Positions 1,867 to 56,319 of a stretch of 64,000 nt of DNA are shown here, one piece after another. Source of the stretch: an uncultured Candidatus Saccharibacteria bacterium (lineage in GTDB: Bacteria; Patescibacteriota; Minisyncoccia; UBA9983). The notes beneath the pieces are model-generated. The model saw only the letters and a list, made by a program, of their open reading frames with translations. It was not told where the DNA came from and ran no database searches. The first letter of the stretch is position 1, and each line of letters opens with the position of its first letter. The position numbers were made by a program, and so were the translations under genes. Location: contig CAYTKF010000002.1 of the NCBI GenBank assembly GCA_964438405.1, positions 12,404 through 76,403 of the forward strand. Direction: 5' to 3'.

Positions 1867-4230
1867 ATGGAAAATATTATCAAAAGACAACTCAATTTAG
1901 AAAGAGTGTCGTTTTTAATTATCAGTATTGTAATTTTTCTATTACCAGTTTTCGTTTTACCTTGGCAAAATACGGCCTTTGGTTTAGGCAAATCTTATCT
2001 GTTTTATGGAGGCATTTTGATTTGTTTTTTCTTCTGGCTTTCCTCTTCTTTACAAAAAGGTGAAATCACAATAGCCAAAAGCATTCTCTTTTTGGCCGGG
2101 GTTGGTTTAATTTTGGCATGGCTGTTTTCTTCAATTTTTTCTCCCAACAAACTTTTTTCTCTTATTGGCCAAGGATACGAGACAGATACTTTCGCATTCT
2201 TTCTAATTTCTGTTGTCGCGCTTTTTCTCGTAGCACAGCTTTTTAATTCAGAAAAAAGGGGTTTGATTTTTTACCTTTTAATTCTGGGCTCTGGCATTTT
2301 GGTTTTTCTATTTCAGCTTTTCCATGTTGTTTTTAAATTTGACCTCTTGCCGTTTAAGATTTTTACAAACCCTGTTTCCAATCTCATAGGCGGCTGGAAC
2401 GACTTAGGCATATTTTTCGGATTTGTCTGTTTGGTGTCATTAATCCTTTTTGAACTTTATAAAACAAACAAACTGCAGAGAATTTTATTCCTGATTAGTA
2501 TATTTCTGTCTTTATTGGCCATGGCGGTTGTTAATTTTTTTACCGGTTGGATAATCTTCGGCGTTTTCGCATTTGCTCTTTTTATTTATATATTCTCTCG
2601 TTCCTTCCAGCCCAACAATGATTTGACTGGTGTCCAACCAAGAGGTAATAATATTTTGCGTCTTTCTTTCTTTGTTTTTTTGATAGTCTTATCTTTTATT
2701 CTCGCCTCTAATACAATTGGCCAATTAAGCAATGCCATAGGCATAAACTATATTGAAGTCGGGCCTTCCTGGCAGGCAACCATAAATGTTATTAAAGAAA
2801 CCCTTAAGACAGACCCCATTACAGGATCCGGTCCCAATACCTTTGTTTATGATTGGCTTAGATATAAACCCCTGGCGGTGAATTCAACAATTTTTTGGAA
2901 TTTAAGATTTTCTTCCGGCGTAGGCCAAATTCCATCAATGTTTGCAACGGGCGGCGTCATAACTATTTTGGCAATTTTATTCTTTTTAGGGACAGTTGTT
3001 TTTTATGGATTTAAAACTTTGTCTTCCTATTATCAGAACGAATTAACAGGTGCTGTTTTAATGTCCTCTTTTTTGGGAAGTCTTTATCTGTGGTCATTTG
3101 TAATTTTTTATTCTCCTGGTTTTGTAATTTTTTCAATGGCCTTTTTAAGCACCGGTCTCTTGCTGGCGATGTTGGTCAATAGCCAGAAAATCGGGGTTAT
3201 GAAAATTTCTTTCTTAAGCAGTCCGCGCGCAGGATTTATTTCTGTTTTAAGCGTTGCCGTCTTGGTACTTGGAACAGTTTCGGCATTTTATCTTTTAATT
3301 CAGAAAGTCCAGGCCTCTTATCTTTATGAAAAAGCAACAGCTCCCTTGAACACCATGGCTGATGTTGATAGTGCGCAAAATTATTTATCAAGGGCAGTAA
3401 ATTTAGACAGCCAGGATTATTACCTTCGTTCTCTGGCTGAGATTGATTTGATTAAAATGCAGCAGGCGATATCTGACACAAGCCTTAGTCAGGACCAGGC
3501 AAGGACTAATTTTCAAAATGCTTTGGCATCGGCAATTCAAAATGCGCAGTCAGCCGTCCAAAGCAATATTCAGGAACCTCTTAACTGGCTGGAGCTCGGC
3601 CGAGTGTACGAATCTATCATTCCGCTTAAAATAACAGGCGCGGACACAATGGCTCTTAATTCTTATTCTGAGGCGTCTAAATATTCTCCCTTTGATCCCT
3701 CTGTTCTTTTGGCATCCGCTCGAGTCAAAATACAGATGCAAAATAATGATGATGCCAAAAAGCTTTTGGAATCAGCCATAAATATTAAAAATGATTATGC
3801 GCCGGCAATATTTCTGTTGAGCCAAATAGAGGCGCAGGCCGGCAATATAAAGGGCGCCATCAGCCATACTGAGCAGACGGCAATGCTGGCACCCAATGAC
3901 ATAGGAGTTCTTTTCCAGCTTGGACTTTTATATTATCAGGATAATAATTTTGACGGAGCAAGAATTGTTCTTGAAAGGGCAGTCAGTATTAACAGCGAAT
4001 ATGCCAATGCCAGATATTTTCTGGGTTTGGCTTATGACAAGCTGGGGCAGAAAAATGATGCTCTTGAACAATTTACAGTCATCAGCAAAACAAATCCAGA
4101 TAATGAAGAAATAAAAAAGATAATAGCGAATTTAACCGCCGGTAAACCAGCCCTGGATAAAATTTCTCCTCCAGCTCCGGCCCCGGAAAAAAGAAGCAGT
4201 CCGCCAATTAGTGAAAGCGGAAACAAATAA
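1867..4230 (+). CDS. Polytopic membrane protein (O-antigen ligase/Wzy-like N-terminal region) with C-terminal TPR repeats
   Basis: 787 aa. The first ~450 aa are very hydrophobic and multi-TM. The C-terminus has repeated TPR-like A/Y/L patterns (ARYFLGLAYDKLGQKNDALEQF). Confidence 0.5.
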   Translation: MENIIKRQLNLERVSFLIISIVIFLLPVFVLPWQNTAFGLGKSYLFYGGILICFFFWLSSSLQKGEITIAKSILFLAGVGLILAWLFSSIFSPNKLFSLIGQGYETDTFAFFLISVVALFLVAQLFNSEKRGLIFYLLILGSGILVFLFQLFHVVFKFDLLPFKIFTNPVSNLIGGWNDLGIFFGFVCLVSLILFELYKTNKLQRILFLISIFLSLLAMAVVNFFTGWIIFGVFAFALFIYIFSRSFQPNNDLTGVQPRGNNILRLSFFVFLIVLSFILASNTIGQLSNAIGINYIEVGPSWQATINVIKETLKTDPITGSGPNTFVYDWLRYKPLAVNSTIFWNLRFSSGVGQIPSMFATGGVITILAILFFLGTVVFYGFKTLSSYYQNELTGAVLMSSFLGSLYLWSFVIFYSPGFVIFSMAFLSTGLLLAMLVNSQKIGVMKISFLSSPRAGFISVLSVAVLVLGTVSAFYLLIQKVQASYLYEKATAPLNTMADVDSAQNYLSRAVNLDSQDYYLRSLAEIDLIKMQQAISDTSLSQDQARTNFQNALASAIQNAQSAVQSNIQEPLNWLELGRVYESIIPLKITGADTMALNSYSEASKYSPFDPSVLLASARVKIQMQNNDDAKKLLESAINIKNDYAPAIFLLSQIEAQAGNIKGAISHTEQTAMLAPNDIGVLFQLGLLYYQDNNFDGARIVLERAVSINSEYANARYFLGLAYDKLGQKNDALEQFTVISKTNPDNEEIKKIIANLTAGKPALDKISPPAPAPEKRSSPPISESGNK

Positions 4231-4239
4231 AAAATAACC

Positions 4240-5919
4240 GTGATAAAAAGAATTTTTGATCTTTTTAATCAGGAACTTAGCGGCCTGCATAAGGCCGCTA
4301 TGGTTTTGGCTGTTTCGTCTTTTGCCTCAGGCCTTCTGGCTCTTTTTAGGGACAGGCTTTTGGCAGGCACATTCGGCGCAGGCAGGTTTCTTGATGTTTA
4401 TTACGCCTCTTTTAAAATTCCAGATTTTTTATACACGATTTCTTTGGTAATAATTTCCGTTAATGTTTTGATACCTTCTTTTCTGGAAAAACTTTCTCAG
4501 TCTTCGCATGAGGCAAAAAAATTTTTTGATAACATTTTTTCCATTTTTTTGTTTGCGATTATTGTTTTAACCGGGATTACGTTTTTTTTAACTCCACAAT
4601 TGACCAATATTATTGCCCCGGGTTTTTCTGTTGAAGAAAAAAGACAGCTTATATTAATGGCCAGAATTCTTCTTCTGTCGCCGTTTTTGTTGGGTATTTC
4701 CAATTTATTTTCCGGCATAGTGCAATCTTTTAACAGGTTTTATGTTTATGCCCTGAGCCCGATTTTATATAATTTCGGCATAATTCTCGGCATTTTGTTT
4801 TTTTATCCGTATTTCGGAATTACGGGTCTGGCATTAGGCGTTGGTCTGGGAGCTCTTCTTCACGCCGGAGTGCAGATTCCAAGCATAATCAGTTCCGGTT
4901 TTGTTCCCAAAATTAAATTTAAACTGGATTTTAAAGAGGCGTGGAAGACTATCAAACTTTCTATTCCACGCACGCTCGGCTTGGGCATCAATCAGCTGGT
5001 TTTAATTTTTATAACAGCCTCTGCCTCTCTTTTTGCCGCGGGAAGTATCGCTGTTTTTAATATTTCCTATAATCTGCAGAGCGTGCCCATGGCCATAATC
5101 GGCATAAGCTACAGCGTGGCGGCCTTTCCCACACTTGCAAAACTTTTTGTATCAAACAAAAAAAAAGAATTTATAGAACACGCTGTCACGGCCATGCGCC
5201 AGATAATCTTTTGGTCTATCCCCGTGACAATTATTTTAATAGTTTTGCGTGCCCAGATCGTCAGAGTAATTTTTGGGTATGGCAATTTTGATTGGCAGGA
5301 TACGCGTCTCACCGCTGCCGGCCTGGCAATTTTTACTGTTTCTCTTTTGGCCCAGTCGCTGGTGGTGCTTTTTGTGAGAGCCTTTTACGCCGCAGGAAAA
5401 ACGTTAAAGCCCCTGATTATAAATGTTATTTCGTCAGTATTTATAATCGGCGGTTCTCTTTTGGCAGCCAATGTTCCCGGTATTGTAAATTTTGTTAAAC
5501 CATATATTGAAAATATTTTAAGAGTGAAAGATGTACCTGGTACAGAAATGCTTCTTCTACCAATATTTTTTTCCTTGGGCACCATAATCAACGCCTGCAT
5601 ACTCATAAAAATGTTTGCCAAAGAAGTCGAGCCGGTCTGGCATTACGTCCGGAAAACTTTTTTTGAGATTGTTGTTGCCTCGCTGGTCATGGGAATGGTG
5701 ACCTATGCCTCGCTTAATTTTTTGGACAAACTTTTTAATATTCAGACATTTATAGGAATTTTTCTGCAGGGATTTGTGTCAGCGTTATTCGGCCTGGGAT
5801 TCTGGTTTGGCGTTCTGCGTTCTGCAAAAAATAAAGAACTGGAAGAAATTATTTCCTCTCTCAAACAAAAATTCTGGAAAACTCCGGCCATTGCACCAGA
5901 ACCGGAAGAACTGCCATAG
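4240..5919 (+). CDS. murJ: Lipid II flippase MurJ/MviN
   Basis: 559 aa. The N-terminus LAVSSFASGLLALFRDRLLAGTFGAGRFLDVYYASFKIPDFLYT matches the MurJ signature. About 14 TM segments. Confidence 0.8.
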   Translation: MIKRIFDLFNQELSGLHKAAMVLAVSSFASGLLALFRDRLLAGTFGAGRFLDVYYASFKIPDFLYTISLVIISVNVLIPSFLEKLSQSSHEAKKFFDNIFSIFLFAIIVLTGITFFLTPQLTNIIAPGFSVEEKRQLILMARILLLSPFLLGISNLFSGIVQSFNRFYVYALSPILYNFGIILGILFFYPYFGITGLALGVGLGALLHAGVQIPSIISSGFVPKIKFKLDFKEAWKTIKLSIPRTLGLGINQLVLIFITASASLFAAGSIAVFNISYNLQSVPMAIIGISYSVAAFPTLAKLFVSNKKKEFIEHAVTAMRQIIFWSIPVTIILIVLRAQIVRVIFGYGNFDWQDTRLTAAGLAIFTVSLLAQSLVVLFVRAFYAAGKTLKPLIINVISSVFIIGGSLLAANVPGIVNFVKPYIENILRVKDVPGTEMLLLPIFFSLGTIINACILIKMFAKEVEPVWHYVRKTFFEIVVASLVMGMVTYASLNFLDKLFNIQTFIGIFLQGFVSALFGLGFWFGVLRSAKNKELEEIISSLKQKFWKTPAIAPEPEELP

Positions 5920-6830: not shown

Positions 6831-9050
6831 ATGGAAGTTAAGAATATTCGGAATTTTTCCATTATTGCACATATTGACCACGGTAAGTCCACGTTGGCGG
6901 ATAGGTTTTTGGAAATCACTAAAACTGTCGAAAAAAGAAAAATGAAAGAGCAGTTTTTGGACCAGATGGAGCTGGAAAGAGAACGTGGAATAACTATTAA
7001 GATGCAACCCGTCAGAATGCTTTATAGCACGCGGATAGACGCGGATAAAGACGCAGATAAACGCGGATTACTATATGAAGATTTGACCTATAAATTAAGG
7101 GGCATGTTTTTTAATGTCTATAATAAACTTGGCCCGGGACACAAAAAGAATATCTATAGTAATGCCCTGGAAAAAGAGTTAATTAACAAGAACTTAAAAT
7201 TTGACAAAGAAAAAACAATGGAAGTTTTATATGACAATGAACAGGTTGGAATTTACAGACCAGATTTTGTTATTGAAGATAAAATTATTATCGAATTAAA
7301 AGCGCTACCCTTTATTGGTAAGTTAGAAAAAAAACAGATTTGGCATTATCTAAAAGGTTCAAATTACAGATTGGCATTATTGGTAAATTTTGGCGGAAGA
7401 GAATTACAAATAGAACGTATAATTTATGATAATATCCGCGACAATCAGCGTAATAATCAGCAAGAATCTGTGTATATTCTAAATTTGATTGACACTCCTG
7501 GGCATATTGATTTTTCATATGAGGTTTCGCGGGCGTTAAAGGCGGTTGAAGGCGCTGTGCTTCTTGTTGACGCCACTCAGGGCGTGCAGGCCCAGACAAT
7601 CGCCAACGTGGAAACGGCAAAATCTTTGGGTCTGACTATTATTCCAGTAATTAATAAAATAGATTTGGCATCAGCAATGATAGAAGAAACAAAAGAAGAA
7701 ATAAAAAAATTACTGGGCGAAACAGATATTTTGGAAGTGTCAGCCAAAAGCGGTCAGGGAGTGGAAGATTTGCTTCAAAAAATAATAAAAAGAGTGCCAG
7801 CGCCAAAATTTGAAAACGAATCTAGCCCTCGTGCCCTTGTTTTTGATTTTGAATATTCCAGCCATCAGGGAATTATTGCTTATATCAGAATGATAGACGG
7901 AGAAATAAAAAAAGGAGATGAACTTCTGCTTTCGCAGACAAAAGAAAAATTTGTTGTTGCCGAAACCGGAATTTTTCTGCCCAACCGGAATCCGGTTTTG
8001 AAATTAAGTGCGGGTGAAATCGGCTATATTGTTACAAATATTAAAAAGCCAAATGTGGCTGTTGTCGGAGATACTGTCATATCACAAAAAAATACACTGG
8101 CGCCTCTTTCTGGTTATCTTCAACCCAAGCCTGTTGTCTGGGCAAGCATATATCCTGAATCTCAGGATGATTTTGATGCGTTTAAACAAGCTCTGGAGAG
8201 ATTACGGCTCTCTGATAGTTCATTAAGTTTTGAGGAGGAGAATAATGGCGCATTGGGTCGTGGATTTAAATGCGGTTTTTTAGGCATGCTGCATTTGGAA
8301 ATTATCACAGAACGTTTGCGCCGCGAATTTAATCTTAAATTAATAACAGCGTCACCGACAGTCACTTATATGCTTGAACTTAAAGATAGTTCCCCAAAAG
8401 AAATTTATTCGCCGATTTCTTTTCCCGAGGAACATCTCATAAAAAAAATTTCAGAGCAATGGGCAGAATTGCAGATCATGGTTCCGTCGGAAAAAATGGG
8501 ATTGATTTTCCCTGTGCTTTACGACCACGAGGCTGAAGTTGGGGACACGGAAAAATTCGGAGAAAATCACACTCTTATAAAAGCCAAGATGCCGTTAAGA
8601 GAATTAATGCGTAATTTTTTTGATGAGCTCAAAAGCGCCACTTCCGGATATGGTTCTCTGGGGTATAAAATTTTGGGTTTTCAAGAAACGCCCCCGGGCA
8701 AAATAGTCCGTTTGGATATTTGGGTGGCAGACGAAATCATGCCGGTTTTTTCCCGTATAATAAGTAGAGAAAGAGTGGAATATGAATCCAGAAGAATCGT
8801 TGAAAAACTGGCGGAAATTATTCCCCGTCAGCTTTTTACAATAAAAATTCAGGCCAAGGCTCTGGGCAGAATTATTGCCTCGCGCTCCATTTCCGCTCTT
8901 AAAAAAGATGTCACCGGCTATCTTTACGGCGGAGACAGAACGCGCAAGATGAAACTTTGGCAGAAGCAGAAGCGCGGAAAAAAGAGAATGAAAGAATTTG
9001 GAAAGGTTAATATTCCCTCAGATGTTTTTATAAAGATGATGCAGAATTAA
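6831..9050 (+). CDS. lepA: Translation elongation factor 4 (LepA) carrying a ~150-aa in-frame inserted domain
   Basis: NIRNFSIIAHIDHGKSTLADR (G1), DTPGHIDF (G3), NKIDL (G4) and the LepA-specific C-terminus ...KKRMKEFGKVNIPSDVF. 739 aa against ~600 typical. Confidence 0.9.
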   Translation: MEVKNIRNFSIIAHIDHGKSTLADRFLEITKTVEKRKMKEQFLDQMELERERGITIKMQPVRMLYSTRIDADKDADKRGLLYEDLTYKLRGMFFNVYNKLGPGHKKNIYSNALEKELINKNLKFDKEKTMEVLYDNEQVGIYRPDFVIEDKIIIELKALPFIGKLEKKQIWHYLKGSNYRLALLVNFGGRELQIERIIYDNIRDNQRNNQQESVYILNLIDTPGHIDFSYEVSRALKAVEGAVLLVDATQGVQAQTIANVETAKSLGLTIIPVINKIDLASAMIEETKEEIKKLLGETDILEVSAKSGQGVEDLLQKIIKRVPAPKFENESSPRALVFDFEYSSHQGIIAYIRMIDGEIKKGDELLLSQTKEKFVVAETGIFLPNRNPVLKLSAGEIGYIVTNIKKPNVAVVGDTVISQKNTLAPLSGYLQPKPVVWASIYPESQDDFDAFKQALERLRLSDSSLSFEEENNGALGRGFKCGFLGMLHLEIITERLRREFNLKLITASPTVTYMLELKDSSPKEIYSPISFPEEHLIKKISEQWAELQIMVPSEKMGLIFPVLYDHEAEVGDTEKFGENHTLIKAKMPLRELMRNFFDELKSATSGYGSLGYKILGFQETPPGKIVRLDIWVADEIMPVFSRIISRERVEYESRRIVEKLAEIIPRQLFTIKIQAKALGRIIASRSISALKKDVTGYLYGGDRTRKMKLWQKQKRGKKRMKEFGKVNIPSDVFIKMMQN
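7028..7070 (+). repeat. Imperfect tandem repeats of ~12 nt (ACGCGGATAAAG-like, ~4 copies) inside lepA
   Basis: cACGCGGATAGACGCGGATAAAGACGCAGATAAACGCGGATTAc encodes STRIDADKDADKRG at the N-terminal junction of the inserted domain. Confidence 0.7.
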
Positions 9051-9558: not shown

Positions 9559-9629
9559 GCGGATATGGTTTAGTGGCAGAACGCGACCTTCCCAAGGTTG
9601 AGATCGGGGTTCGATTCCCCGTATCCGCA
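9559..9629 (+). tRNA. tRNA-Gly(CCC)
   Basis: Cloverleaf folds by hand: acceptor GCGGATA/TATCCGC, anticodon stem CGACC/GGTTG with loop TTCCCAA, T-arm CGGGG-TTCGATT-CCCCG. Confidence 0.8.
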
Positions 9630-9666
9630 TGTGTTAATTATTAAAAAAGACAAAAAAGAGGAATTT

Positions 9667-10476
9667 TTGGAAAAAACTAAGGGCAAGTTTGAGGTTTTTT
9701 CCGCCCAAGGCGGACCCGCCTCTGGCGGAGATTCCTTTAAAAAATATCTCCTACCCCCAATAGAAGATATTGAATCCAAACCACCTAAAAAATTTGTCAT
9801 TATTGGCCTAAGTGATTGTGATTTAGAAGCAATAATTCAGCTGGATGAAATAATGACAAGGCCAGTGCGAGATTCTCTTTACTGGCAAAGAAGGGAACAG
9901 GCGATTATTGTTGGTTCAGACGACAAAAACGCAAAAAAGTTTGTTGAAGATTATAAAGAATTTTTGGAGGAAACAATGGAAGCGTTGCTTCCACTTGGAA
10001 GCGTCGCTTCCAAGTGGGCTGACTGGACGAAGTCCATGCGCCAGCTTCTGCTTGATTCCGAGCTTTTGGCAAATGCAGTTGAATGGTCTCACGACCATAA
10101 AATCTGGGACGATTTGGCAATACGATGTTTGGGCTGTGGCATTTGCACTTATGTCTGCCCACTTTGTTACTGCTTTTCAATGGAGGATAGTGTCGGGTTT
10201 GATGGTGTATGTAAAAGATGCAAAAAATGGGACGCTTGCACCTTGCCGAATTTTTCAAAAATCGCCGGAGGACATGATTTTAGGCCGAGCATCAAAGAAA
10301 GATATTATAACTGGTTTTACCACAAATTCGTGCGCGCCTATAAAGAATATGGTAAATCCCAATGCGTCGGCTGTGGAAGATGCAAAAGCCAGTGTCCGGC
10401 TGGCATAGATATTTATGAAGTGTTAAAAATTATTTTAGAAGATTATGGAAAATATTTATCAGCCGCAAAAAATTAA
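9667..10476 (+). CDS. hydB: [NiFe]-hydrogenase (group 3b/sulfhydrogenase-like) beta subunit, Fe-S protein
   Basis: CxxCxxCxxxCP ferredoxin motifs (CLGCGICTYVCP and CVGCGRCKSQCP). First gene of the hyd operon. The start is uncertain because the ORF track start lies inside the tRNA; TTG at 9667 with an AGAGGA RBS is proposed. Confidence 0.6.
   Translation: MEKTKGKFEVFSAQGGPASGGDSFKKYLLPPIEDIESKPPKKFVIIGLSDCDLEAIIQLDEIMTRPVRDSLYWQRREQAIIVGSDDKNAKKFVEDYKEFLEETMEALLPLGSVASKWADWTKSMRQLLLDSELLANAVEWSHDHKIWDDLAIRCLGCGICTYVCPLCYCFSMEDSVGFDGVCKRCKKWDACTLPNFSKIAGGHDFRPSIKERYYNWFYHKFVRAYKEYGKSQCVGCGRCKSQCPAGIDIYEVLKIILEDYGKYLSAAKN
9977..10023. repeat. In-frame ~45-nt double-palindrome element inside hydB
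   Basis: TGGAAGC-GTT-GCTTCCA c TTGGAAGCG-T-CGCTTCCAA GTGGGCT. The reverse complement recurs at 13235-13278 inside hydA with 2-3 mismatches. Confidence 0.8.
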
Positions 10477-11731: not shown

Positions 11732-12475
11732 ATGAAACCCAAAGTTGCAATTTATGATTTTACAGACTGCGAGGGATGCGAAGTGAAGCTTATTTCTCTG
11801 CGCGAGAAATTACTTTTGATTGAAGATAAATTAAATATTGTTAACTGGCGTTTTGGTCAGGAAAAATTTAATGCCGGGCCCTATGACATTACAATTATAG
11901 AGGGAACGCCTATTACAGAAAGCGAAGTTAAATTATTAAAAGAATTAAGGCAAAATTCAAAAGTTTTAATTGCTCTTGGCGCCTGCGCTGGACTGGGCGG
12001 CATTCCCGCAATCATTCCGCAAAAAGACAGAAAATTTTGGTACGATAAAATTTACACTTCGCAATACACGCCCCAGGGCATAGACGCCTTACCGCTCTCT
12101 GCTTACGTACCAATTGATTTTACTATTCACGGATGTCCGGTTGATGAAAATGAGGTGGTGCGTGTCGTGGAGGAACTTTTAAGCGGTAAAAAACCACATT
12201 ACAGGGGCTATTCCGTATGTTTTGAGTGCAAGCTGGCTGGCAACGAGTGCAGAATAATAAATAACAAGCCGTGTCTTGGTCCCATAACGCAAGGCGGATG
12301 CAATGCAGTTTGTATCACGGGCGGCTCGCCGTGTTACGGATGTTTTGGTTTGCGAAGCGAGGCAAATATTCCAGCGCTTATAAAAATTTTAGAAAAACTA
12401 ACTAATATTAAGGTTGTAGAAAATTATCTCAGTATGTTTCATAATAGAACAAAAGAAATAAAAAATGATCACTAA
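11732..12475 (+). CDS. hydD: [NiFe]-hydrogenase small (delta) subunit
   Basis: MKPKVAIYDFTDCEGCE N-terminal Cys motif plus further Cys clusters, typical of group-3 small subunits and NuoB-like proteins. Confidence 0.7.
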   Translation: MKPKVAIYDFTDCEGCEVKLISLREKLLLIEDKLNIVNWRFGQEKFNAGPYDITIIEGTPITESEVKLLKELRQNSKVLIALGACAGLGGIPAIIPQKDRKFWYDKIYTSQYTPQGIDALPLSAYVPIDFTIHGCPVDENEVVRVVEELLSGKKPHYRGYSVCFECKLAGNECRIINNKPCLGPITQGGCNAVCITGGSPCYGCFGLRSEANIPALIKILEKLTNIKVVENYLSMFHNRTKEIKNDH

Positions 12476-13667
12476 CGAATTTATCGCAAAAATTGAGGGA
12501 CACGGAAGTTTAAAAATTGATTGGAGCGCAGGCAAAGTTAAACTTCATATTGACGAAGGCGAACGGCTTTTTGAAGGAATTTTAGTTAATAGGCCGGCAG
12601 AAAATGCTTCATGGATAACTCCGCGCATCTGCGGAGTTTGCCCGATTGCGCACAATCTTGCTTCGCTTTCTGCAATAGAAGACGCGCTTGGCATTAAAAT
12701 AACAGAAACTTCACAATTTTTAAGAGATTTAATGCAAACAGTTCAAATGATGCAAAGTCATGTCCTGCATTTGTTTTTTCTTGCCTTGCCGGATTATATC
12801 AGGATTGACAGAGGCACAGAATTAGCAAAAAAAGAACCTAACGCATTTAAAAAGGCATTGTTTATAAAAGAAATAAGCGATGAGATTGCAAGTGTTGTTG
12901 CCGGCAGAAATGTTCATCCCACAACAACAACCATCGGCGGATTTCATAAAATCCCTTCAAAAAAACAGCTTGAAAATCTGCTTAAAAAACTGGAAAAAGG
13001 CGAAAAAGATGCGGAATGGGTGCCGAAATATTTTTCTAAATTAAAATATCCGAAGTTAAAAGTTGATTTGGAACTGGTGGCAATCAGCGGAGACGAAGTT
13101 GTTTCTAATAAAGGCGGTAAATTTTTGATAAAAGATTACAAACAAAATATTGAGGAAGAATTACGAGATTATTCCACGGCTAAGTTCGGCAAACTTCAGG
13201 GCAGAGAGATAATGGTAGGGGCGTTGGCGAGATTAGCTCACTTGGAAGCGTCGCTTCCAAGTGGAAGCATCGCTTCCAAATTGGACTTTTCCAATCCCTT
13301 TCACAACAATCTCGCTCAGGCAATTGAAATAGAAATGTTTTATAAAAAGGCCGAGAAAATTATAAAAAAATTATTAAGCATAGAAATGGATAATAAAATA
13401 ATTCCAGCGTCAATTAGCGACGGTGCAGGTATCGGCGCAGTTGAGGCGCCCAGGGGCGGGCTTTACCATGAAATTCATGTCAATCAAGAGGGGATTGTCA
13501 CTTACGCAAATATTGTTACTCCAACAGTGCAAAATTTAACTTCTATAGAAAAATCAGCACAAGAATTATTAAATCAGACGAAAAAATTGGATAATAAAGA
13601 GAGAGAAAGATTATTGAACATGCTCGTCCGCAGCTACGACCCGTGCATAACCTGCTCAGTGCATTAA
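12465..13667 (+). CDS. hydA: [NiFe]-hydrogenase large (alpha) subunit
   Basis: N-terminal RICGVCPIAH (CxxC Ni ligands) and C-terminal DPCITCSVH (DPCxxCxxH motif). Confidence 0.8.
   Translation: MITNEFIAKIEGHGSLKIDWSAGKVKLHIDEGERLFEGILVNRPAENASWITPRICGVCPIAHNLASLSAIEDALGIKITETSQFLRDLMQTVQMMQSHVLHLFFLALPDYIRIDRGTELAKKEPNAFKKALFIKEISDEIASVVAGRNVHPTTTTIGGFHKIPSKKQLENLLKKLEKGEKDAEWVPKYFSKLKYPKLKVDLELVAISGDEVVSNKGGKFLIKDYKQNIEEELRDYSTAKFGKLQGREIMVGALARLAHLEASLPSGSIASKLDFSNPFHNNLAQAIEIEMFYKKAEKIIKKLLSIEMDNKIIPASISDGAGIGAVEAPRGGLYHEIHVNQEGIVTYANIVTPTVQNLTSIEKSAQELLNQTKKLDNKERERLLNMLVRSYDPCITCSVH
13235..13278. repeat. In-frame ~45-nt double-palindrome element inside hydA, inverted orientation of the hydB copy
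   Basis: AGCTCAC TTGGAAGCG-T-CGCTTCCAA g TGGAAGC-ATC-GCTTCCA encodes LEASLPSGSIASKL. Its reverse complement aligns with 9977-10023. Confidence 0.8.
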
Positions 13668-14829: not shown

Positions 14830-14901
14830 GCCCTTGTAGCTCAACGGATAGAGCAATCCCGTCCTAAGGGAGAGATACGGGTTCAATTCCTGTCGAGGGC
14901 A
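14830..14901 (+). tRNA. tRNA-Arg(CCT)
   Basis: Acceptor GCCCTTG/CGAGGGC, D-arm TAGCTCAACGGATAGAGCA, anticodon loop GTCCTAA, T-arm ACGGG-TTCAATT-CCTGT. Confidence 0.7.
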
Positions 14902-14903
14902 TA

Positions 14904-14974
14904 GGGCCTATAGTATAGTGGCAGAACATCTCCATGGCATGGAGAAGGTCGGGGTTCGATTCCCCGTAGGTCCA
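14904..14974 (+). tRNA. tRNA-Ala(GGC)
   Basis: Acceptor GGGCCTA/TAGGTCC carrying the G3:U70 Ala identity pair. Anticodon loop ATGGCAT. T-arm CGGGG-TTCGATT-CCCCG. Confidence 0.75.
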
Positions 14975-20885: not shown

Positions 20886-21009
20886 AATATTAAAACTAAT
20901 TATAAATTAATGGTCCAAAATAAAAAAGGGGAGCGTTTCAACGTCTTTCGACTCCACGCCCCCCGCTCTGCACTCAACGCCGTCCCAGAGGGCTGTGGAT
21001 AAATAAAAA

Positions 21010-21099
21010 CGGAAGCGGGTGGATTCGAACCACCGATCCGCCTCAGCGGCGGATACCGCTTTTCGAGAGCGGCCCATTCAACCACTCTGGCACGCTTCC
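21010..21099 (-). tRNA. tRNA-Ser(CGA)
   Basis: Reverse complement reads GGAAGCG-TGCCAGAGTGGTTGAATGGG-CCGCT CTCGAAA AGCGG, then a long variable arm, then GGTGG-TTCGAAT-CCACC CGCTTCC G. Confidence 0.85.
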
Positions 21100-21113
21100 A
21101 TACAAAAACTTTT

Positions 21114-21185
21114 TGACCCTACCGGGAATCGAACCCGGATTTACACATTGAAAGCGTGCCGTCCTGACCATTAGACGATAGGGCC
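21114..21185 (-). tRNA. tRNA-Glu(TTC)
   Basis: Reverse complement gives acceptor GGCCCTA/TAGGGTC, anticodon loop CTTTCAA, T-arm CCGGG-TTCGATT-CCCGG. Confidence 0.7.
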
Positions 21186-21320
21186 TATTTGCTTGAAATT
21201 TTACCCCAAAAACAATAAAATGTAAATCTGTGAAAAATTTTAAAGAAAAAGTTTTTGATGTTGTTAAAAAAATTCCCAGAGGGTTGAAATTTTAAGTAAT
21301 TTTATTACAATAAGTAAGTT

Positions 21321-21392
21321 GCGCCCATAGCTCAGTGGTAGAGCGTTTCGTTGACATCGAAAAGGCCCGAAGTTCGATCCTTCGTGGGCGCA
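21321..21392 (+). tRNA. tRNA-Val(GAC)
   Basis: Acceptor GCGCCCA/TGGGCGC, D-arm TAGCTCAGTGGTAGAGCG, anticodon loop TTGACAT, T-arm CGAAG-TTCGATC-CTTCG. Confidence 0.85.
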
Positions 21393-21401
21393 TGGAAAAT
21401 T

Positions 21402-21644
21402 ATGTCAAAAAAAACAAAAATTATTCAGAAACGCGAAGAGTGCATTGGTTGCGGTTCTTGTACCATTGTTTGCCAGAAGTTTTGGAAGATGAACGAAAAA
21501 GATATGAAAGCAGATTTAATTGGTGGAAAAATTAATGACTCTGGCGAATACGAATTGGAGATAAAGAATATTAGCGCAGAGGATTTAGATTGTAATAAAC
21601 AGGCCGCAGATGTATGTCCTGTTAAAATAATTAAAATAATATGA
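21402..21644 (+). CDS. Small 4Fe-4S ferredoxin
   Basis: CIGCGSCTIVC ... CP cluster-binding pattern. 80 aa. ATGA overlap with trxB. Confidence 0.65.
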   Translation: MSKKTKIIQKREECIGCGSCTIVCQKFWKMNEKDMKADLIGGKINDSGEYELEIKNISAEDLDCNKQAADVCPVKIIKII

Positions 21645-22558
21645 TTTATGATGTTGCAATAATTGGAGGTTCGTTTGCCGGTCTCACTGCCGGCATTTAT
21701 TCCGCCAGAAAAAAACTTTCTACTATCATTCTCACAAAAAATCTCGGAGGCCAGGCAATACTTACCGAAGAAATAGGAAATTTTCCGGGATTCGAAAAAA
21801 TTTCCGGCAGAGAGCTGACACAAAAAATAACAGACCAAAATAAGAAATACGGCGTGGAGATAAAGGAAGGTACAGAAATAATTTCTATAAAAAAAGATGA
21901 AGAGGAGTTTGAAGTCCGACTTCGAAATCTCGAAGTCGGACTTCGGGCAAAATCAGTTATTATAGCGACTGGCAAAGAATACCGGCATTTGAATGTCCCA
22001 GGCGGTAAAGAATATGAAAATAAGGGCATAAGTTTTTGTTCCACCTGTGACGCCCCGCTTTTTGAAAACAAAGACGTGGCGGTTGTGGGCGGAGGAAATT
22101 CCGGATTATGCTCTAGCCGCGACCTTCTGGCATACGCCAATAAAATTTATGTTATGGATGTCCTGTCCCAAATAACAGGAGACGAGATTATCCAAGAGCA
22201 GTTGAAAAAAAGCGGCAAAGTAGAATTTATAACTAATGCCAAAATAAAAGAAATCAAGGGCGGAAATTTTGTGGAAAAAATTATTTATTCAGACGGAGAT
22301 GACGAAAAAGAATTGAATGTTCAGGGAATTTTTGTAAACATCGGCTGGATGCCATCAAGCGGATTGGCAAAAGAGCTGGTTAAAATAAACAAAGCCGGAG
22401 AAATAATAATTGACCACAATACCAATGAAACTTCGGTTCCGGGAATTTTCGCAGCCGGCGATGTCACTGACATAAAATACAAACAATGCGTCATAGCTGC
22501 TGCAGAGGGCGCAAAAGCAGCTCTCTCAGCCTACGAGTATTTAAAAAATAAAAAGTAA
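21641..22558 (+). CDS. trxB: Thioredoxin reductase
   Basis: YDVAIIGGSFAGLTAG FAD site, CSTCDAP redox-active CxxC, and GGGNSG NADPH site. Confidence 0.8.
   Translation: MIYDVAIIGGSFAGLTAGIYSARKKLSTIILTKNLGGQAILTEEIGNFPGFEKISGRELTQKITDQNKKYGVEIKEGTEIISIKKDEEEFEVRLRNLEVGLRAKSVIIATGKEYRHLNVPGGKEYENKGISFCSTCDAPLFENKDVAVVGGGNSGLCSSRDLLAYANKIYVMDVLSQITGDEIIQEQLKKSGKVEFITNAKIKEIKGGNFVEKIIYSDGDDEKELNVQGIFVNIGWMPSSGLAKELVKINKAGEIIIDHNTNETSVPGIFAAGDVTDIKYKQCVIAAAEGAKAALSAYEYLKNKK
21909..21947. repeat. In-frame tandem palindrome inside trxB
   Basis: TT GAAGTCCGACTTC GAAATCTC GAAGTCGGACTTC GGG. The two 14-nt arms are perfect reverse complements. Encodes FEVRLRNLEVGLRA. Confidence 0.75.
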
Positions 22559-23284
22559 TTATTTGCCGGTAGTATAAGTGCCGTTTAGAATCTGGTCAAT
22601 AATAACCTTAAGCTGTGCGTAAGGAAGTGCTCCGCTCACAGGATATTTGTCTCCGTTTTTGGTTAATATTACAGAATATGGCGTGCCCCGAGCGCCCGAG
22701 GCAACGGCGTCTTCATAATCCGTCTGCACCTTGGCTGCGAATTTCCCGCTACTCAGGCAATCATTAAATTTGTTTACATCAAGTCCGACATACTCGGCTA
22801 TTTTTGGAAGCTGGGTTGGATCTAATGTATCGTTTGAAGTTGTCACTTCAAAAAGACGGTTGACATAAGTCCAGAATTTGTCATTACCCCCAAGATCAGC
22901 CGCGCATTCTGTTGCCTCAGCCTCTTTTCTTGATTTTTGATGCAAGGAATCAAGCGGGAAGTGGCGAAGGACAAAACGCATCTTGCCTGCCTTTCCGTAT
23001 TCGTCCATCATCTGGTTTGCAGTGGCATTGAATGTTTTACAAAACGGGCATTCCAGATCAGTAAAGAGGATAAATGTCAGGTCGGCATTGGGGTTGCCAA
23101 GAATGTGGTCACTGGAGGTAACTTCTTTAGGTCCATCTAATTTTTGTCCTGAAGTAACATCTCCGGTTGCAGCCAGATTATCAGATGGTTTTTTTGTGTT
23201 GGTATTGGTGTAATAAACGGTTCCGGCAATAATTAATCCGGCAACTATAATTGATGCGGGCAAAGCCCAATTTTTATTTTCCAT
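22559..23284 (-). CDS. Membrane-anchored DsbA-like thiol:disulfide oxidoreductase
   Basis: N-terminal TM, thioredoxin fold with a CPFC active site (FTDLECPFCKTFN). Confidence 0.75.
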   Translation of the reverse strand: MENKNWALPASIIVAGLIIAGTVYYTNTNTKKPSDNLAATGDVTSGQKLDGPKEVTSSDHILGNPNADLTFILFTDLECPFCKTFNATANQMMDEYGKAGKMRFVLRHFPLDSLHQKSRKEAEATECAADLGGNDKFWTYVNRLFEVTTSNDTLDPTQLPKIAEYVGLDVNKFNDCLSSGKFAAKVQTDYEDAVASGARGTPYSVILTKNGDKYPVSGALPYAQLKVIIDQILNGTYTTGK

Positions 23285-30344: not shown

Positions 30345-30420
30345 CCCACCCAACCCTCCCTTATCAGGGAGGGAGTTTTATTTTTTCCTCCCCTTGATAA
30401 AGGGGAGGTCAGGTGGGGGT
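30345..30420. terminator. Nested double-hairpin terminator region between convergent pth and rpsA
   Basis: CCCACC..[CCCTCCC-TTATCA-GGGAGGG]-AGTTTTATTTTTT-[CCTCCCC-TTGATAA-AGGGGAGG]..GGTGGGGG. Confidence 0.6.
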
Positions 30421-42994: not shown

Positions 42995-43010
42995 AACTTC
43001 AGTTTTAAAG

Positions 43011-43041
43011 AAAAACCATCCGCCCAGGGCGGATGGTTTTT
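43011..43041 (+). terminator. Rho-independent terminator
   Basis: AAAAACCATCCGCCC-AGG-GCGGATGGTTTTTCTTTTT. Confidence 0.8.
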
Positions 43042-43077
43042 CTTTTTGTTGCAACTTGTTAAGATAAAAATAGTCCA

Positions 43078-45820: not shown

Positions 45821-46234
45821 CTAGTCGTCCAATTTGATTTTGAATTTCTTTGCCCAGTTTTCATCTTCGGACGAAAAAGTGCCGAGCTCAATTTTTCCGT
45901 CTTCTCTGACTTTGGGCTGAACCGGTTTTGGTGATTGTTGGGAAATTGGCGCAATTTCTCCAATAAGTGCAAGATTTATTCCGAAGCCGGCTTCGCGAAG
46001 AGCTTGGAGCGCCCACAAAAAATCAGTGCTTTCTGAAAGTGCTTCTGTGACAGCCGAACTCATCCTCTCTGCCAATTCGGCTATTTTTTTCTTGTCTACA
46101 ATTACAGTCTGGCATTTTGCCCCGCAAGTGGGGCAGGTAACTTCAACGATCCTTCCATAATTTTTTTTTGAGATGGTCAATCTCAAAGTAATATTACAAT
46201 CTGGGCATGGCAGGTACTGATATTCTTTTTCCAA
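45821..46234 (-). CDS. Hypothetical protein with an N-terminal zinc-ribbon
   Basis: CPDC...CPTCGAKC, followed by a charged C-terminal region. Confidence 0.4.
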   Translation of the reverse strand: MEKEYQYLPCPDCNITLRLTISKKNYGRIVEVTCPTCGAKCQTVIVDKKKIAELAERMSSAVTEALSESTDFLWALQALREAGFGINLALIGEIAPISQQSPKPVQPKVREDGKIELGTFSSEDENWAKKFKIKLDD

Positions 46235-46325
46235 AGTACACCTCCTTGTTTCGTTTGAAACAATATAATATTATAATGATTTAGTCAAATAATTAAACAT
46301 AATGCGAAAAATTTGGTAAAATAAA

Positions 46326-54341: not shown

Positions 54342-54608
54342 TTATTTTTCCAATTCTGCAATTTGCTGTTTTTTGACCTCTATGAGTTCTTTGATTCTTT
54401 GAATTTGGGTATTATCGGCCGCTCTTGCTTCGCCCGAAGCGCCGCTTCGCATTCCCATGCCCATTTCTACACTAGAAAGCCATTGCTCAAGATCAGCTAA
54501 CCCCTTAAGCAGTTTAGCCTTTTCTTCCTCTTTTGTTTTTTCTTGGCTTTTATAGCCAAAAACTTCTAAAAAATTCATATATTTTATTATATCATAATTC
54601 TGATACAA
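54342..54608 (-). CDS. Hypothetical coiled-coil protein
   Basis: 88-aa charged ORF. Confidence 0.35.
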   Translation of the reverse strand: MYQNYDIIKYMNFLEVFGYKSQEKTKEEEKAKLLKGLADLEQWLSSVEMGMGMRSGASGEARAADNTQIQRIKELIEVKKQQIAELEK

Positions 54609-54615
54609 TTTAAAT

Positions 54616-56319
54616 ATGGAGAACCAAGAGCTCGCGAAGATTTTTTATGAGATGGCGGTTTATTTGGAGATGATGGATGAGGTGGTTTTTAAGTTTAAGG
54701 CGTATGAGAAAGCTGGCCAGAGCATAGAGGGTTTGGCAGAAAGCGTTGAAGAAATTTATAAAAGAGGCGGCATCAAGGCACTAATGGAAATTCCGGGCAT
54801 CGGCAAGAATATCGCTGAAAAAATCAGCGAATATTTGCGAACCGGAAAAATCCGCGAATATCTGCAATTAAAGAAGAAAATTCCAGTTGATTTAGGTGGG
54901 CTGATGAAAATTGAAGGTGTCGGACCGAAGAAAATAAAAGTTTTATATAAAAAATTAAAAATAAGGAACGCCAAAGAATTGGAGATAGCTGCTAAGAAGG
55001 GAAAAATAAGCAAATTAAAAAACTTCGGCGAGAAGAGCGAAAAAAATATTCTGGAAAGCATCGAATTTCTTAAAAGAAGCAAGGGAAGGTTTTTAATCAG
55101 TGAAATTCTGCCTGTTGTGCGCGAAATTGTTGCCAAATTAAAGTCCTTAAAAGAAGTTAAACAAATAAGCCTGGCCGGCTCTCTGCGCAGAATGAAAGAA
55201 ACAATAGGGGACGCGGATATTCTTGCTGTTGCCAATAAATCTGATAAAGTTATGGATTATTTTGTTTCTCTGCCAGGAGTTGTAAAAATATGGGGAAAGG
55301 GCGCGACAAAATCTTCTGTAAGAATGAAACACGGGTTTGATGTAGATTTGCGCGTTGTGCCGGAAAAAAGTTTTGGTTCTGCCTTGCAATATTTTACCGG
55401 TTCCAAAGAACACAATATTGCCACGCGCAAAATTGCCATAGAAAAAGGATTTAAGCTGAACGAATACGGAATCAAAACAGAAAAAGAAGTTTACGCTAGG
55501 CTTGGTCTGCCATATATAGAGCCGGAATTAAGAGAAAATACAGGAGAGATAAAAGTGGCCTTAAAAAATAAATTGCCCAAGCTGGTTGAATTAAAAGATA
55601 TCCATGGCGATTTACAAATACATTCAACTTGGTCTGATGGCGTAAATTCTATTAAAGAAATGGCGGAAACGGCACAAAAAATTGGTTATGAATATATTGC
55701 CATTACTGATCACGTTGGCAGATTAAAAATTGCCGGAGCAATGGCTGAGAGCCAAATCAAAAGACAATGGCAAGAAATTGATAAACTTAACAAGTCGTTT
55801 GGCAATCCGCCGGCTGGCGGATTTAAAATATTAAAGGGCGCTGAAGTTGACATTAATCCGGACGGCACAATAGCCTGCGATGATAAAATTTTATCACAGT
55901 TCGATGTTGTCCTTGGTTCTCTGCATTCAAGTTTTAAAATTCCAAAAGAAAAAATGACAAAGAGATTGGTCCGCGCCATGGAAAATCCGTATGTTGATAT
56001 TATCGCGCATCCCACAACCAGATTAATTGCTAGGCGCGACGAAGTGGTGCTTGATTGGGAAGAAATTTTTAAGATAGCAAAACGCACGGGCACGATTTTG
56101 GAAATTAATGCTTATCCGGCCCGTCTTGATTTAAAAGATGTTTATATAAAACAGGCAATAGAAGCGGGAGTAATACTTTCTTTGGGCACTGATTCGCATG
56201 AAAAATCGCAATTGCATTTTATGGAATACGGCGTTTCTCAGGCGCGCCGTGGTTGGGCAGAAAAGAAAAATATTGTAAATTGCTGGCCATTAGATAAACT
56301 TTTGAATTTTTTGAAATAA
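54616..56319 (+). CDS. polX: Family X DNA polymerase with C-terminal PHP domain (PolX)
   Basis: N-terminal HhH motifs (IPGIGKNIAEKI, IEGVGPKKIK), Pol-beta-like palm (GSLRR...GDADIL) and PHP domain (HSTWSDG...ITDH...HPT). Confidence 0.85.
   Translation: MENQELAKIFYEMAVYLEMMDEVVFKFKAYEKAGQSIEGLAESVEEIYKRGGIKALMEIPGIGKNIAEKISEYLRTGKIREYLQLKKKIPVDLGGLMKIEGVGPKKIKVLYKKLKIRNAKELEIAAKKGKISKLKNFGEKSEKNILESIEFLKRSKGRFLISEILPVVREIVAKLKSLKEVKQISLAGSLRRMKETIGDADILAVANKSDKVMDYFVSLPGVVKIWGKGATKSSVRMKHGFDVDLRVVPEKSFGSALQYFTGSKEHNIATRKIAIEKGFKLNEYGIKTEKEVYARLGLPYIEPELRENTGEIKVALKNKLPKLVELKDIHGDLQIHSTWSDGVNSIKEMAETAQKIGYEYIAITDHVGRLKIAGAMAESQIKRQWQEIDKLNKSFGNPPAGGFKILKGAEVDINPDGTIACDDKILSQFDVVLGSLHSSFKIPKEKMTKRLVRAMENPYVDIIAHPTTRLIARRDEVVLDWEEIFKIAKRTGTILEINAYPARLDLKDVYIKQAIEAGVILSLGTDSHEKSQLHFMEYGVSQARRGWAEKKNIVNCWPLDKLLNFLK

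Follow-up and report, generated by a model that had tools for sequence, protein, structure and literature searches.

A palindrome doublet translated within a thioredoxin-reductase-like gene of an uncultured Candidatus Saccharibacteria bacterium, probably a REP/REPIN-type repeat

We analysed a 64-kb window of DNA (64,000 nucleotides (nt) of contig CAYTKF010000002.1) from an uncultured Candidatus Saccharibacteria bacterium, a member of the Candidate Phyla Radiation (CPR), and in it a palindromic element inside trxB, a gene for a thioredoxin-reductase-like flavoprotein. A 100% protein match ties the window to the metagenome-assembled genome 'Parcubacteria group bacterium Athens0714_26'. This palindrome is probably an intragenic, translated copy of a repeat of the repetitive extragenic palindrome (REP) type, consisting of two inverted short hairpin units as in the REP doublets called REPINs, which are linked to REP-associated tyrosine transposases (RAYTs). 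Copies of the repeat family, with its inverted-doublet architecture, are read in every frame and lie in numerous unrelated genes of several phyla, and the same or sister cores adjoin RAYT-like genes in other genomes. The palindrome is an element of the DNA rather than of the protein. Intragenic REP dimers are known already; what is new is a very short, mostly intragenic variant. The features of the locus, in window coordinates, are the following:

21641..22558, plus strand: host gene, a thioredoxin-reductase / AhpF-C-like flavoprotein of the Pyr_redox_2 family, 305 amino acids (aa).
21902..21949, plus strand: patch common to all TrxB carriers, GAGGAGTTT + doublet + GGGCA, residues E88-A103, from codon and peptide alignments.
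21911..21923, no strand: REP unit 1, GAAGTC-C-GACTTC = GAAGTCCGACTTC, codons E91 V R L and the first base of R95.
21924..21931, no strand: 8-nt spacer GAAATCTC between the cores, its middle AATC being the loop of the long hairpin.
21932..21944, no strand: REP unit 2, GAAGTC-G-GACTTC = GAAGTCGGACTTC, inverted relative to unit 1.
Without coordinates: REP unit forms named for copy counting, GAAGTCSGACTTC and GGAAGCNNNGCTTCC.

From 21911 to 21944 the element reads GAAGTCCGACTTC-GAAATCTC-GAAGTCGGACTTC. Direct reading and a repeat finder concur on two inverted arms, 21911-21925 (GAAGTCCGACTTCGA) and 21930-21944 (TCGAAGTCGGACTTC), which are 15 nt long, 100% complementary and 4 nt apart, with one 6+1+6 palindrome inside each; the palindrome of unit 2 is longer and spans 21931-21945 (CGAAGTCGGACTTCG). 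An initial annotation, made from the letters alone, had described perfect inverted arms of 14 nt, one base per arm too few, and had called each arm a near-palindrome GAAGTC(C/G)GACTTC, as the 6+1+6 palindromes at 21911-21923 and 21932-21944 bear out. It had also correctly placed the element in frame inside the thioredoxin-reductase gene (open reading frame (ORF) 21641-22558), where it encodes F90-EVRLRNLEVGLR-A103 directly before IIATG, and had noted that it is richer in G+C than the surrounding codons (0.50 vs 0.40 for the gene). CGA, the rarest Arg codon of the window (6%), is used twice in the element. As in a REP unit, a short hairpin palindrome, the stems measure 6-7 bp around a central C or G, and in many copies they are lengthened by 1-6 covarying bp; as in a REP doublet, two inverted units stand a short spacer apart, forming in the window copy 15-bp arms around a 4-nt loop. 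By our own estimate from base composition, about 6e-4 such 15-bp stems are expected per 64 kb. The palindrome is beyond chance, because the window holds 7 perfect stems of at least 10 bp as against 0-3 in 30 shuffles, and because the RNA fold of the element, at -31.8 kcal/mol, has z = -7.4. Reading the GAAGTC[C/G]GACTTC core in all six frames gives zero stop codons.

We scanned species-representative genomes, one per species, for two units 5-12 nt apart, and found at least 119 loci with such doublets. Besides many lineages of CPR, the matches listed, to which the doublet and frame counts below refer, represent Chloroflexota/Caldilineaceae, Cyanobacteria, Ignavibacteria, Omnitrophota and Bacteroidota, and at none of these loci is the gene trxB. 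The 13-mer of unit 1 is identical in 121 doublets of other genomes, 112 of which (93%) are inverted pairs with opposite centres and spacers of 5-12 nt; the order is C then G in 81 and G then C in 31, and the centres are equal in 9. Elsewhere, at L002 and L124 (loci in other genomes carry L numbers here), the spacer is changed to GAGATTTC and the stems are intact. The extragenic location from which REPs take their name is not what we see, since the window copy lies inside trxB and, of the 121 doublets, 63% fall where a frame runs for 200 aa or more with no stop, as compared with 76% of positions drawn at random from those loci. Each of the three frames occurs (23/22/31), so that the same core is read as EVRL/EVGL, KSDF or SPTS/SRTS. 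Ten hosts were checked, and they include UvrA (twice), RecG, FtsK, topoisomerase I (TopA), LeuRS, another class I aminoacyl-tRNA synthetase (aaRS) and a type I restriction R subunit. Several loci per genome occur in Caldilineaceae ABC1.76, Chloroflexota JPNG_maxbin.037 and Giovannonibacteria RIFOXYD1_FULL_48_21, and L130 has five doublets within 11 kb, all of the GAAGTC type and within the two ORFs next to its RAYT-like gene. Profiling of 242 unit ends gave no conserved flank, target or guide motif (at most 0.12 bit per position). The orientation of a doublet relative to the coding strand is uninformative for telling a function in RNA from one in DNA, as a C..G doublet reads alike on both strands. 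There were zero doublets in 2.9 million viral contigs, and hence no sign of a phage vector, and Rfam 15 gave no family match over 21000-23000, only chance-level miRNA-precursor matches (25 bits vs 75).

In other genomes, RAYT-like genes are flanked by the GAAGTC core (L025, L210, L209, L207), by a permuted form of it (L208, L206), by a one-bp variant (L130), or by the core of two hydrogenase-gene doublets of the window, hyd1 and hyd2, that are described below (L177, L202). The L025 locus comes from Ignavibacterium; its Y1_Tnp gene has two GAAGTCCGACTTC units 80-110 nt upstream and partial copies downstream. Cyanobacteria, Chloroflexota and Bacteroidota have homologs of the L025 protein that bear the name RayT, and the loci of five were fetched. 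The RAYT-like genes of L210, L209 and L207 stand between GAAGTCCGAC.../...GTCGGACTTC repeats that contain GAAGTC[CG]GAC / GTC[CG]GACTTC, while those of L208 and L206 have flanking doublets of the form AGACTTC[CG]GAAGTCT. In these two Chloroflexota loci (L208 3952-3984 and 4575-4609; L206, flanks of 4001-4567) the half-sites are joined as AGACTTC-S-GAAGTCT, not as AGAAGTC-S-GACTTCT. The gene of L130, which is of CPR type, is flanked by a GAAATC[CG]GATTTC doublet, and that of L175 by the core found at L125, a syntenic relative of the window. The hyd core GGAAGCGTYGCTTCC is represented at L177 by GGGAAGCGTYGCTTCCC on both sides of the gene, and at L202 by a flanking hairpin CACTTGGAAGC-CTC-GCTTCCAAGTG, one loop base off the hyd unit of the window. 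More generally, most of 80 CPR-type RAYT-like genes from a metagenome scan with a Y1 alignment have one short perfect hairpin on either side. Some RAYT-like ORFs, those of L080, L194, L201 and L202, themselves contain REP copies in frame. There, the gene's own flanking hairpin is found in its coding sequence, at L080 2655-2685 (KLGHSVSKS), L194 442 and 733, L201 4240 and L202 1410. The RAYT-like proteins have the HUH and Tyr motifs, and for six that were tested the sole NCBIfam match was NF047646 (REP-associated tyrosine transposase), with Pfam Y1_Tnp above its cut-off. Looked at from the side of the GAAGTC doublets, a Y1 gene lies within 8 kb at 3 of the 119 loci listed, which is not clearly above chance, and L025 alone is directly adjacent.

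Alignment of TrxB homologs changes the picture of how the element sits in its gene. The initial annotation had proposed a lineage-specific insertion of about 13 aa, and had held that distant homologs with the same segment would make it ancestral. Close homologs are all about 305 aa, and non-carriers have a generic hairpin F.I.L..G..I.AK in the same place that is one residue shorter; in other words, 33 native nt are exchanged for 36 nt, a replacement with a net gain of one codon. The segment, [ED]EFEVRLR[NDG][LF]E[VID]GLR, is present in 10 of the 120 best TrxB matches. Nor is it lineage-specific: besides the window, at least nine Parcubacteria TrxB clusters at 62-67% identity carry it, whereas the two closest homologs (73-74% identity) are without it. 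Homologs with the same segment thus exist, and yet ancestry does not follow from them, because the carriers are not monophyletic and their synonymous sites are conserved in the segment but not in the remainder of the gene. Once the segment is masked, carriers and non-carriers intermingle in the tree, and carrier monophyly is obtained in 0 of 100 bootstraps. Among four carriers, nucleotide identity is 88-95% in the patch, as against 56-72% over 30 codons of flank and about 70% for the gene as a whole; at third positions, it is 75-92% in the patch vs 54-64% gene-wide. The carrier P0007 and the non-carrier P0051 are 90% identical across the gene and 44% in the patch, with ordinary similarity in the flanks, and the patch is therefore confined to 21902-21949. 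No wider recombination tract surrounds it, as the flanks are no more similar than the remainder of the gene, and comparison of carrier with non-carrier trxB shows no target-site duplication of the kind expected of a MITE (a miniature transposable element bounded by inverted repeats). A further TrxB, P0084 (L123 4310-4354), has another doublet, GGAAATCGGATTTCC-TGAA-GGAAATCCAATTTCC, on the same beta-hairpin, with a gain of 7 aa; this doublet, an independent one, is built on the sister core GGAAATC[CG]GATTTCC and has one mismatch in its second unit. The same element as in the window is found in independent assemblies from NCBI, JGI and Logan.

In an AlphaFold2 model of the host protein (mean pLDDT 86), residues 89-94 form a strand, 95-100 a turn and 101-108 a strand, and the doublet encodes the first strand, the turn and the beginning of the second strand. 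At the position of the doublet, where the native hairpin lies, the structures solved for TrxR and AhpF show a stretch of comparable length. The doublet is thus predicted to be translated as a small surface hairpin that replaces the native beta-hairpin of the FAD domain. Among solved structures, the host protein is nearest to the AhpF C-terminal module, its best match, and to thioredoxin reductases. Upstream, a small 4Fe-4S ferredoxin gene (Fer4_15/Fer4_13; 21402-21644) overlaps the trxB start (21641) by 4 nt, and the pairing of the two genes is kept in the relatives L001, L003 and L123-L125. Instead of being a classical NADPH TrxR, the flavoprotein may be linked to ferredoxin.

The window holds two further doublets in frame, both of a sister core and both in hydrogenase genes:

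9977..10017, no strand: hyd1, sister doublet TGGAAGC-GTT-GCTTCCA CT TGGAAGC-GTC-GCTTCCA(AGTGG), in frame within ORF 9598-10476, a Fer4_22 hydrogenase subunit.
13239..13279, no strand: hyd2, sister doublet CACTTGGAAGC-GTC-GCTTCCAAGTG GAAGC-ATC-GCTTCCA, in frame in the NiFe hydrogenase large subunit ORF 12465-13667.

Hyd1 and hyd2 share 26 identical nt that are read in different reading frames. That the trxB element matches them in architecture, as the initial annotation suggested, is supported by other genomes, in which some GAAGTC doublets stand on the exact hyd scaffold, TGGAAG-xxxxx-CTTCCACTTGGAAG-xxxxx-CTTCCAAGTGG. Those of L030, L067 and L073 (TGGAAGTCGGACTTCCACTTGGAAGTCCGACTTCCAAGTGG) differ from the hyd form in the apical 5 nt alone, and at L211 the hyd2 loop is occupied by a trxB-type doublet, CGAAGTCGGACTTCG-AATT-TCGAAGTCCGACTTCGA. 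L125 has, in its hydrogenase large subunit and at the matching codon position, a doublet of equal length and with the same outer scaffold, in which the inner 4 bp of both hairpins are swapped with full compensation (AAGC/GCTT vs CGGT/ACCG). The doublet cores of L125 recur in its own HisRS and LeuRS genes. In-frame doublets lie there at 2741-2788, 7400-7422, 7708-7737 and 14884-14925, with the cores CTCGACAAC[CG]GTTGTCGAG and ACTTGG...CCAAGT; the host genes of these other-core doublets are those of LeuRS, HisRS and the hydrogenase large subunit. In most of 120 hydrogenase homologs the ARLA-to-KLDF loop is 8-10 aa long, and it measures 12-32 aa in variants with REP-doublet-like peptides; the AHLE..LPSG..SK scaffold recurs in non-sister hydrogenase lineages. 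Just 5' of hyd2, at 13221-13238, the window has 9 extra nt compared with L125 (LAR-LAH, TTGGCGAGA / TTAGCTCAC), which look like a diverged tandem duplication. Taken with the two hydrogenase genes, the trxB palindrome had suggested a general mechanism that generates palindromic micro-insertions in coding DNA of this genome. A general process that places palindromes in coding DNA is borne out, but neither as one peculiar to this genome nor as an anonymous generator of palindromes, considering that the cores are common to several phyla and flank RAYT-like Y1 genes, and thereby rank as REP/REPIN-type repeats.

As to the mechanism, families of this kind go with RAYT-like Y1 (HUH) tyrosine transposases, present in single copy, which act on hairpins in single-stranded DNA; going by the family, such an enzyme would recognise the doublets and spread them. 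As single-stranded DNA, the doublet could fold into one long hairpin or two short ones. In compact CPR genomes, most landing sites would be coding, and copies would persist only if the frame is kept, no stop codon arises and the site is a tolerant surface element; in TrxB, the 36 nt would be translated as strand-turn-strand in place of the native beta-hairpin. That such an enzyme moved the trxB copy and is encoded in this genome, and the way in which the native hairpin codons were removed, are matters that we infer. Several points weigh against a REP/REPIN-type origin. The RAYT-like proteins score 24-51 bits on NF047646, below its curated cut-off of 80, and a tblastn search with three RAYT-like queries found no RAYT-like gene in the window. 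A GTAG / CGTC tag is absent from the 242 unit ends, CGTC occurring solely at the apex of the hyd unit. The window has one GAAGTC doublet and two GGAAGC doublets, with multi-copy status in this genome unproven. Moreover, the trxB copy is no clean insertion and has identical junctions in non-sister lineages, neither of which simple transposition predicts, and the conservation of synonymous sites across lineages about 70% identical could instead reflect a function at the level of the host. Selection on few possible target sites, recombination of short patches between lineages, or targeted conversion could account for the replacement and the identical junctions, as well as for the presence of several REP families in the same loops and the conserved synonymous sites. 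We also entertained, as a doubtful extension, the idea that REP doublets are junction-precise cassettes that overwrite equivalent codons (the TrxB beta-hairpin; the ARLA...KLDF loop of NiFe hydrogenase), recurrently in non-sister lineages and with several REP families, as opposed to copies that merely insert at random and are then filtered.

We weighed other origins for the trxB palindrome, all of which are weakened by the dispersal of the core, its use of frames, the adjacency to RAYT-like genes and the recurrence in independent assemblies. It is unlikely that the element is a cis-acting structure selected specifically in trxB, in other words a regulatory site in the form of a stable mRNA hairpin or of DNA palindromes spaced 21 bp, for instance an operator bound by a dimeric repressor, an RNase III or stability element, or a site where translation pauses. 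Synonymous sites are indeed conserved among carriers otherwise about 70% identical, the fold is strong (-31.8 kcal/mol, z = -7.4), and the sole stem change (A to G, in L001) retains a sense-strand G-U pair, the other changes being in the loop or lengthening the stem. However, the core recurs in over 100 unrelated genes, where it is read in every frame, and also between genes, in several phyla and beside RAYT-like genes; the closest TrxB relatives are entirely without the element, no Rfam family matches, and the doublet is strand-symmetric, so that a sense-strand bias cannot be demonstrated. An origin in situ by intra-strand template switching or snap-back synthesis, with no mobile element involved, which is what the general mechanism of the initial annotation amounts to, we hold to be at least as unlikely. 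It would fit the replacement of native sequence with hardly any change in length and no target-site duplication, the second hairpin of P0084, which overlaps ancestral-looking bases (AAAGGAAA vs GAAGGAAAT), and the fully compensated differences between genomes in the cores at one orthologous hydrogenase site. Local templating, on the other hand, cannot give an identical 13-mer at hundreds of unrelated sites in several phyla, nor identical 26-mers in two genes of the window in different frames, and it leaves the same cores beside RAYT-like genes unexplained.

That the peptide FEVRLRNLEVGLRA is an ancestral TrxB segment, kept for protein function in an old subfamily, appears very improbable: 10 of the 120 best homologs do share it at the same position, but these carriers are interleaved with non-carriers bearing the universal hairpin, the choice of codons is both conserved and atypical, and the same DNA is read as KSDF and SPTS elsewhere. 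That the palindrome is an artefact of assembly or amplification, for instance a chimera, is barely conceivable; palindromes can stem from multiple displacement amplification or from assembly, and nothing specific suggests this here, whereas the ORF is intact and the element recurs in the independent NCBI, JGI and Logan assemblies.

The preferred REP/REPIN-type reading rests in part on known systems. REPs occur as inverted doublets (REPINs, or bacterial interspersed mosaic elements, BIMEs) that are linked to RAYTs (Bertels & Rainey 2011, PMC3116915; Nunvar 2010, PMC2817692; Bertels 2017, PMC5581495). Our elements are like them in their short inverted hairpin units with a short spacer, their many copies dispersed over numerous genomes, the same sequence on both sides of a Y1/HUH gene and cores that vary by genome. 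They differ in that the doublet is much shorter (31-38 nt) and mostly lies in genes, where it is translated, in lacking both a GTAG/CGTC tag and a conserved flank, and in having one core common to several phyla. Further differences are the scores of the associated proteins, which do not reach the curated RayT cut-off, and the exchange of native codons in the trxB and hydrogenase copies, as opposed to a mere addition to them. RAYTs of Group 4 are reportedly common in Cyanobacteria, Chlorobia and Caldilineae, and the taxa of the GAAGTC family (Caldilineae, Cyanobacteria, Ignavibacteria) are near to these. Ignavibacteria are relatives of Chlorobia. Intragenic REPs have been documented as well, over half of them dimers, often in UvrA, other repair genes and aaRS genes, and the classes of host genes found here (UvrA, RecG, FtsK, TopA, aaRS) match those reported (Di Nocera et al. 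2013, PMC3733652). Including the Rickettsia palindromic elements (RPEs) RPE-4 and RPE-6, those repeats likewise occur in frame, as singles or dimers, in repair, replication and aaRS genes, UvrA especially, and tolerance in loops has been proposed for them (Di Nocera et al. 2013). There, however, they are a minority of an extragenic population, in Opitutus, Rickettsia, Thauera and others, whereas here about 60% of copies are genic, they come from CPR and from phyla outside that survey, and they have neither tag. In the literature searched we found none on REP/RAYT systems in CPR, and in the full-text search none containing these core sequences.

Other palindromic elements share some of these traits. 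Rickettsia palindromic elements of the RPE-1 type, reportedly described by Ogata and colleagues in 2000, are said to be selfish palindromic DNA that lies in frame in essential genes and is translated at surface positions. RPEs are about 100-150 bp long and limited to Rickettsiales, and they are not known to occur as doublets flanking RAYT genes; the RPE-1 type is unrelated in sequence to the trxB doublet and shares with it the in-frame, translated surface insertion. Palindrome-associated transposable elements (PATEs) derived from IS200/IS605 have two hairpins in direct orientation that bound a longer body. In fungal mitochondria, a different genetic system, two neighbouring hairpins make up the whole of the double-hairpin elements, for which no transposase is known. 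Both are like our doublets in having two hairpins and a presumed single-strand recognition, with the difference that PATE hairpins are direct and those here are inverted.

The window contains further palindromes. Related single palindromes lie at 45982-45995 (CGAAGCCGGCTTCG) and 54435-54449 (CGAAGCGCCGCTTCG), in the minus-strand ORFs 45824-46270 and 54345-54644, and may be solo REP units. Two adjacent G+C-rich intergenic hairpins, 30354-30373 (CCCTCCCT-TATC-AGGGAGGG) and 30387-30408 (CCTCCCCTT-GATA-AAGGGGAGG), could be another doublet family or a terminator pair. The long perfect palindromes with A/T-rich ends at 1604-1635 (AAAACCCCGTCGCTCGCGAGCGACGGGGTTTT) and 43007-43045 (AAAGAAAAACCATCCGCCC-A-GGGCGGATGGTTTTTCTTT) look like bidirectional intrinsic terminators that are unrelated to the REP family. 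Apart from palindromes, the LepA (EF4) ORF (6831-9050, plus strand, 739 aa) has a complete PD-(D/E)XK nuclease-superfamily domain (PF13366, E = 1e-30; residues 84-196) inserted in frame within its GTPase domain, with low-complexity borders RIDADKDADKRG ... RDNQRNNQQES.

If the REP/REPIN-type reading is right, odd palindromes across CPR coding sequences would be unified as one class, tied to distant RAYT-like transposases, which in very compact genomes lives mainly inside genes and is translated. For annotation, repeats would then be the source of seemingly lineage-specific inserts and of odd peptides (EVRL/KSDF/SPTS or LEASLPSGS, for example), which bears on phylogenetics and recombination tests on such genes, and for protein engineering doublet sites would mark tolerant loops. 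For REPIN-RAYT biology, the family would reach new phyla, with one core common to phyla and copies within RAYT genes. Were doublets also to act as replacement cassettes, this would imply targeted homing-like or gene-conversion replacement, or recombination of patches between lineages in competent CPR cells, and would amount to a rewriting of protein surfaces that is undescribed for REP/RAYT systems; recurrent replacement at the same junctions, if real, would point to a new targeting or conversion mechanism.

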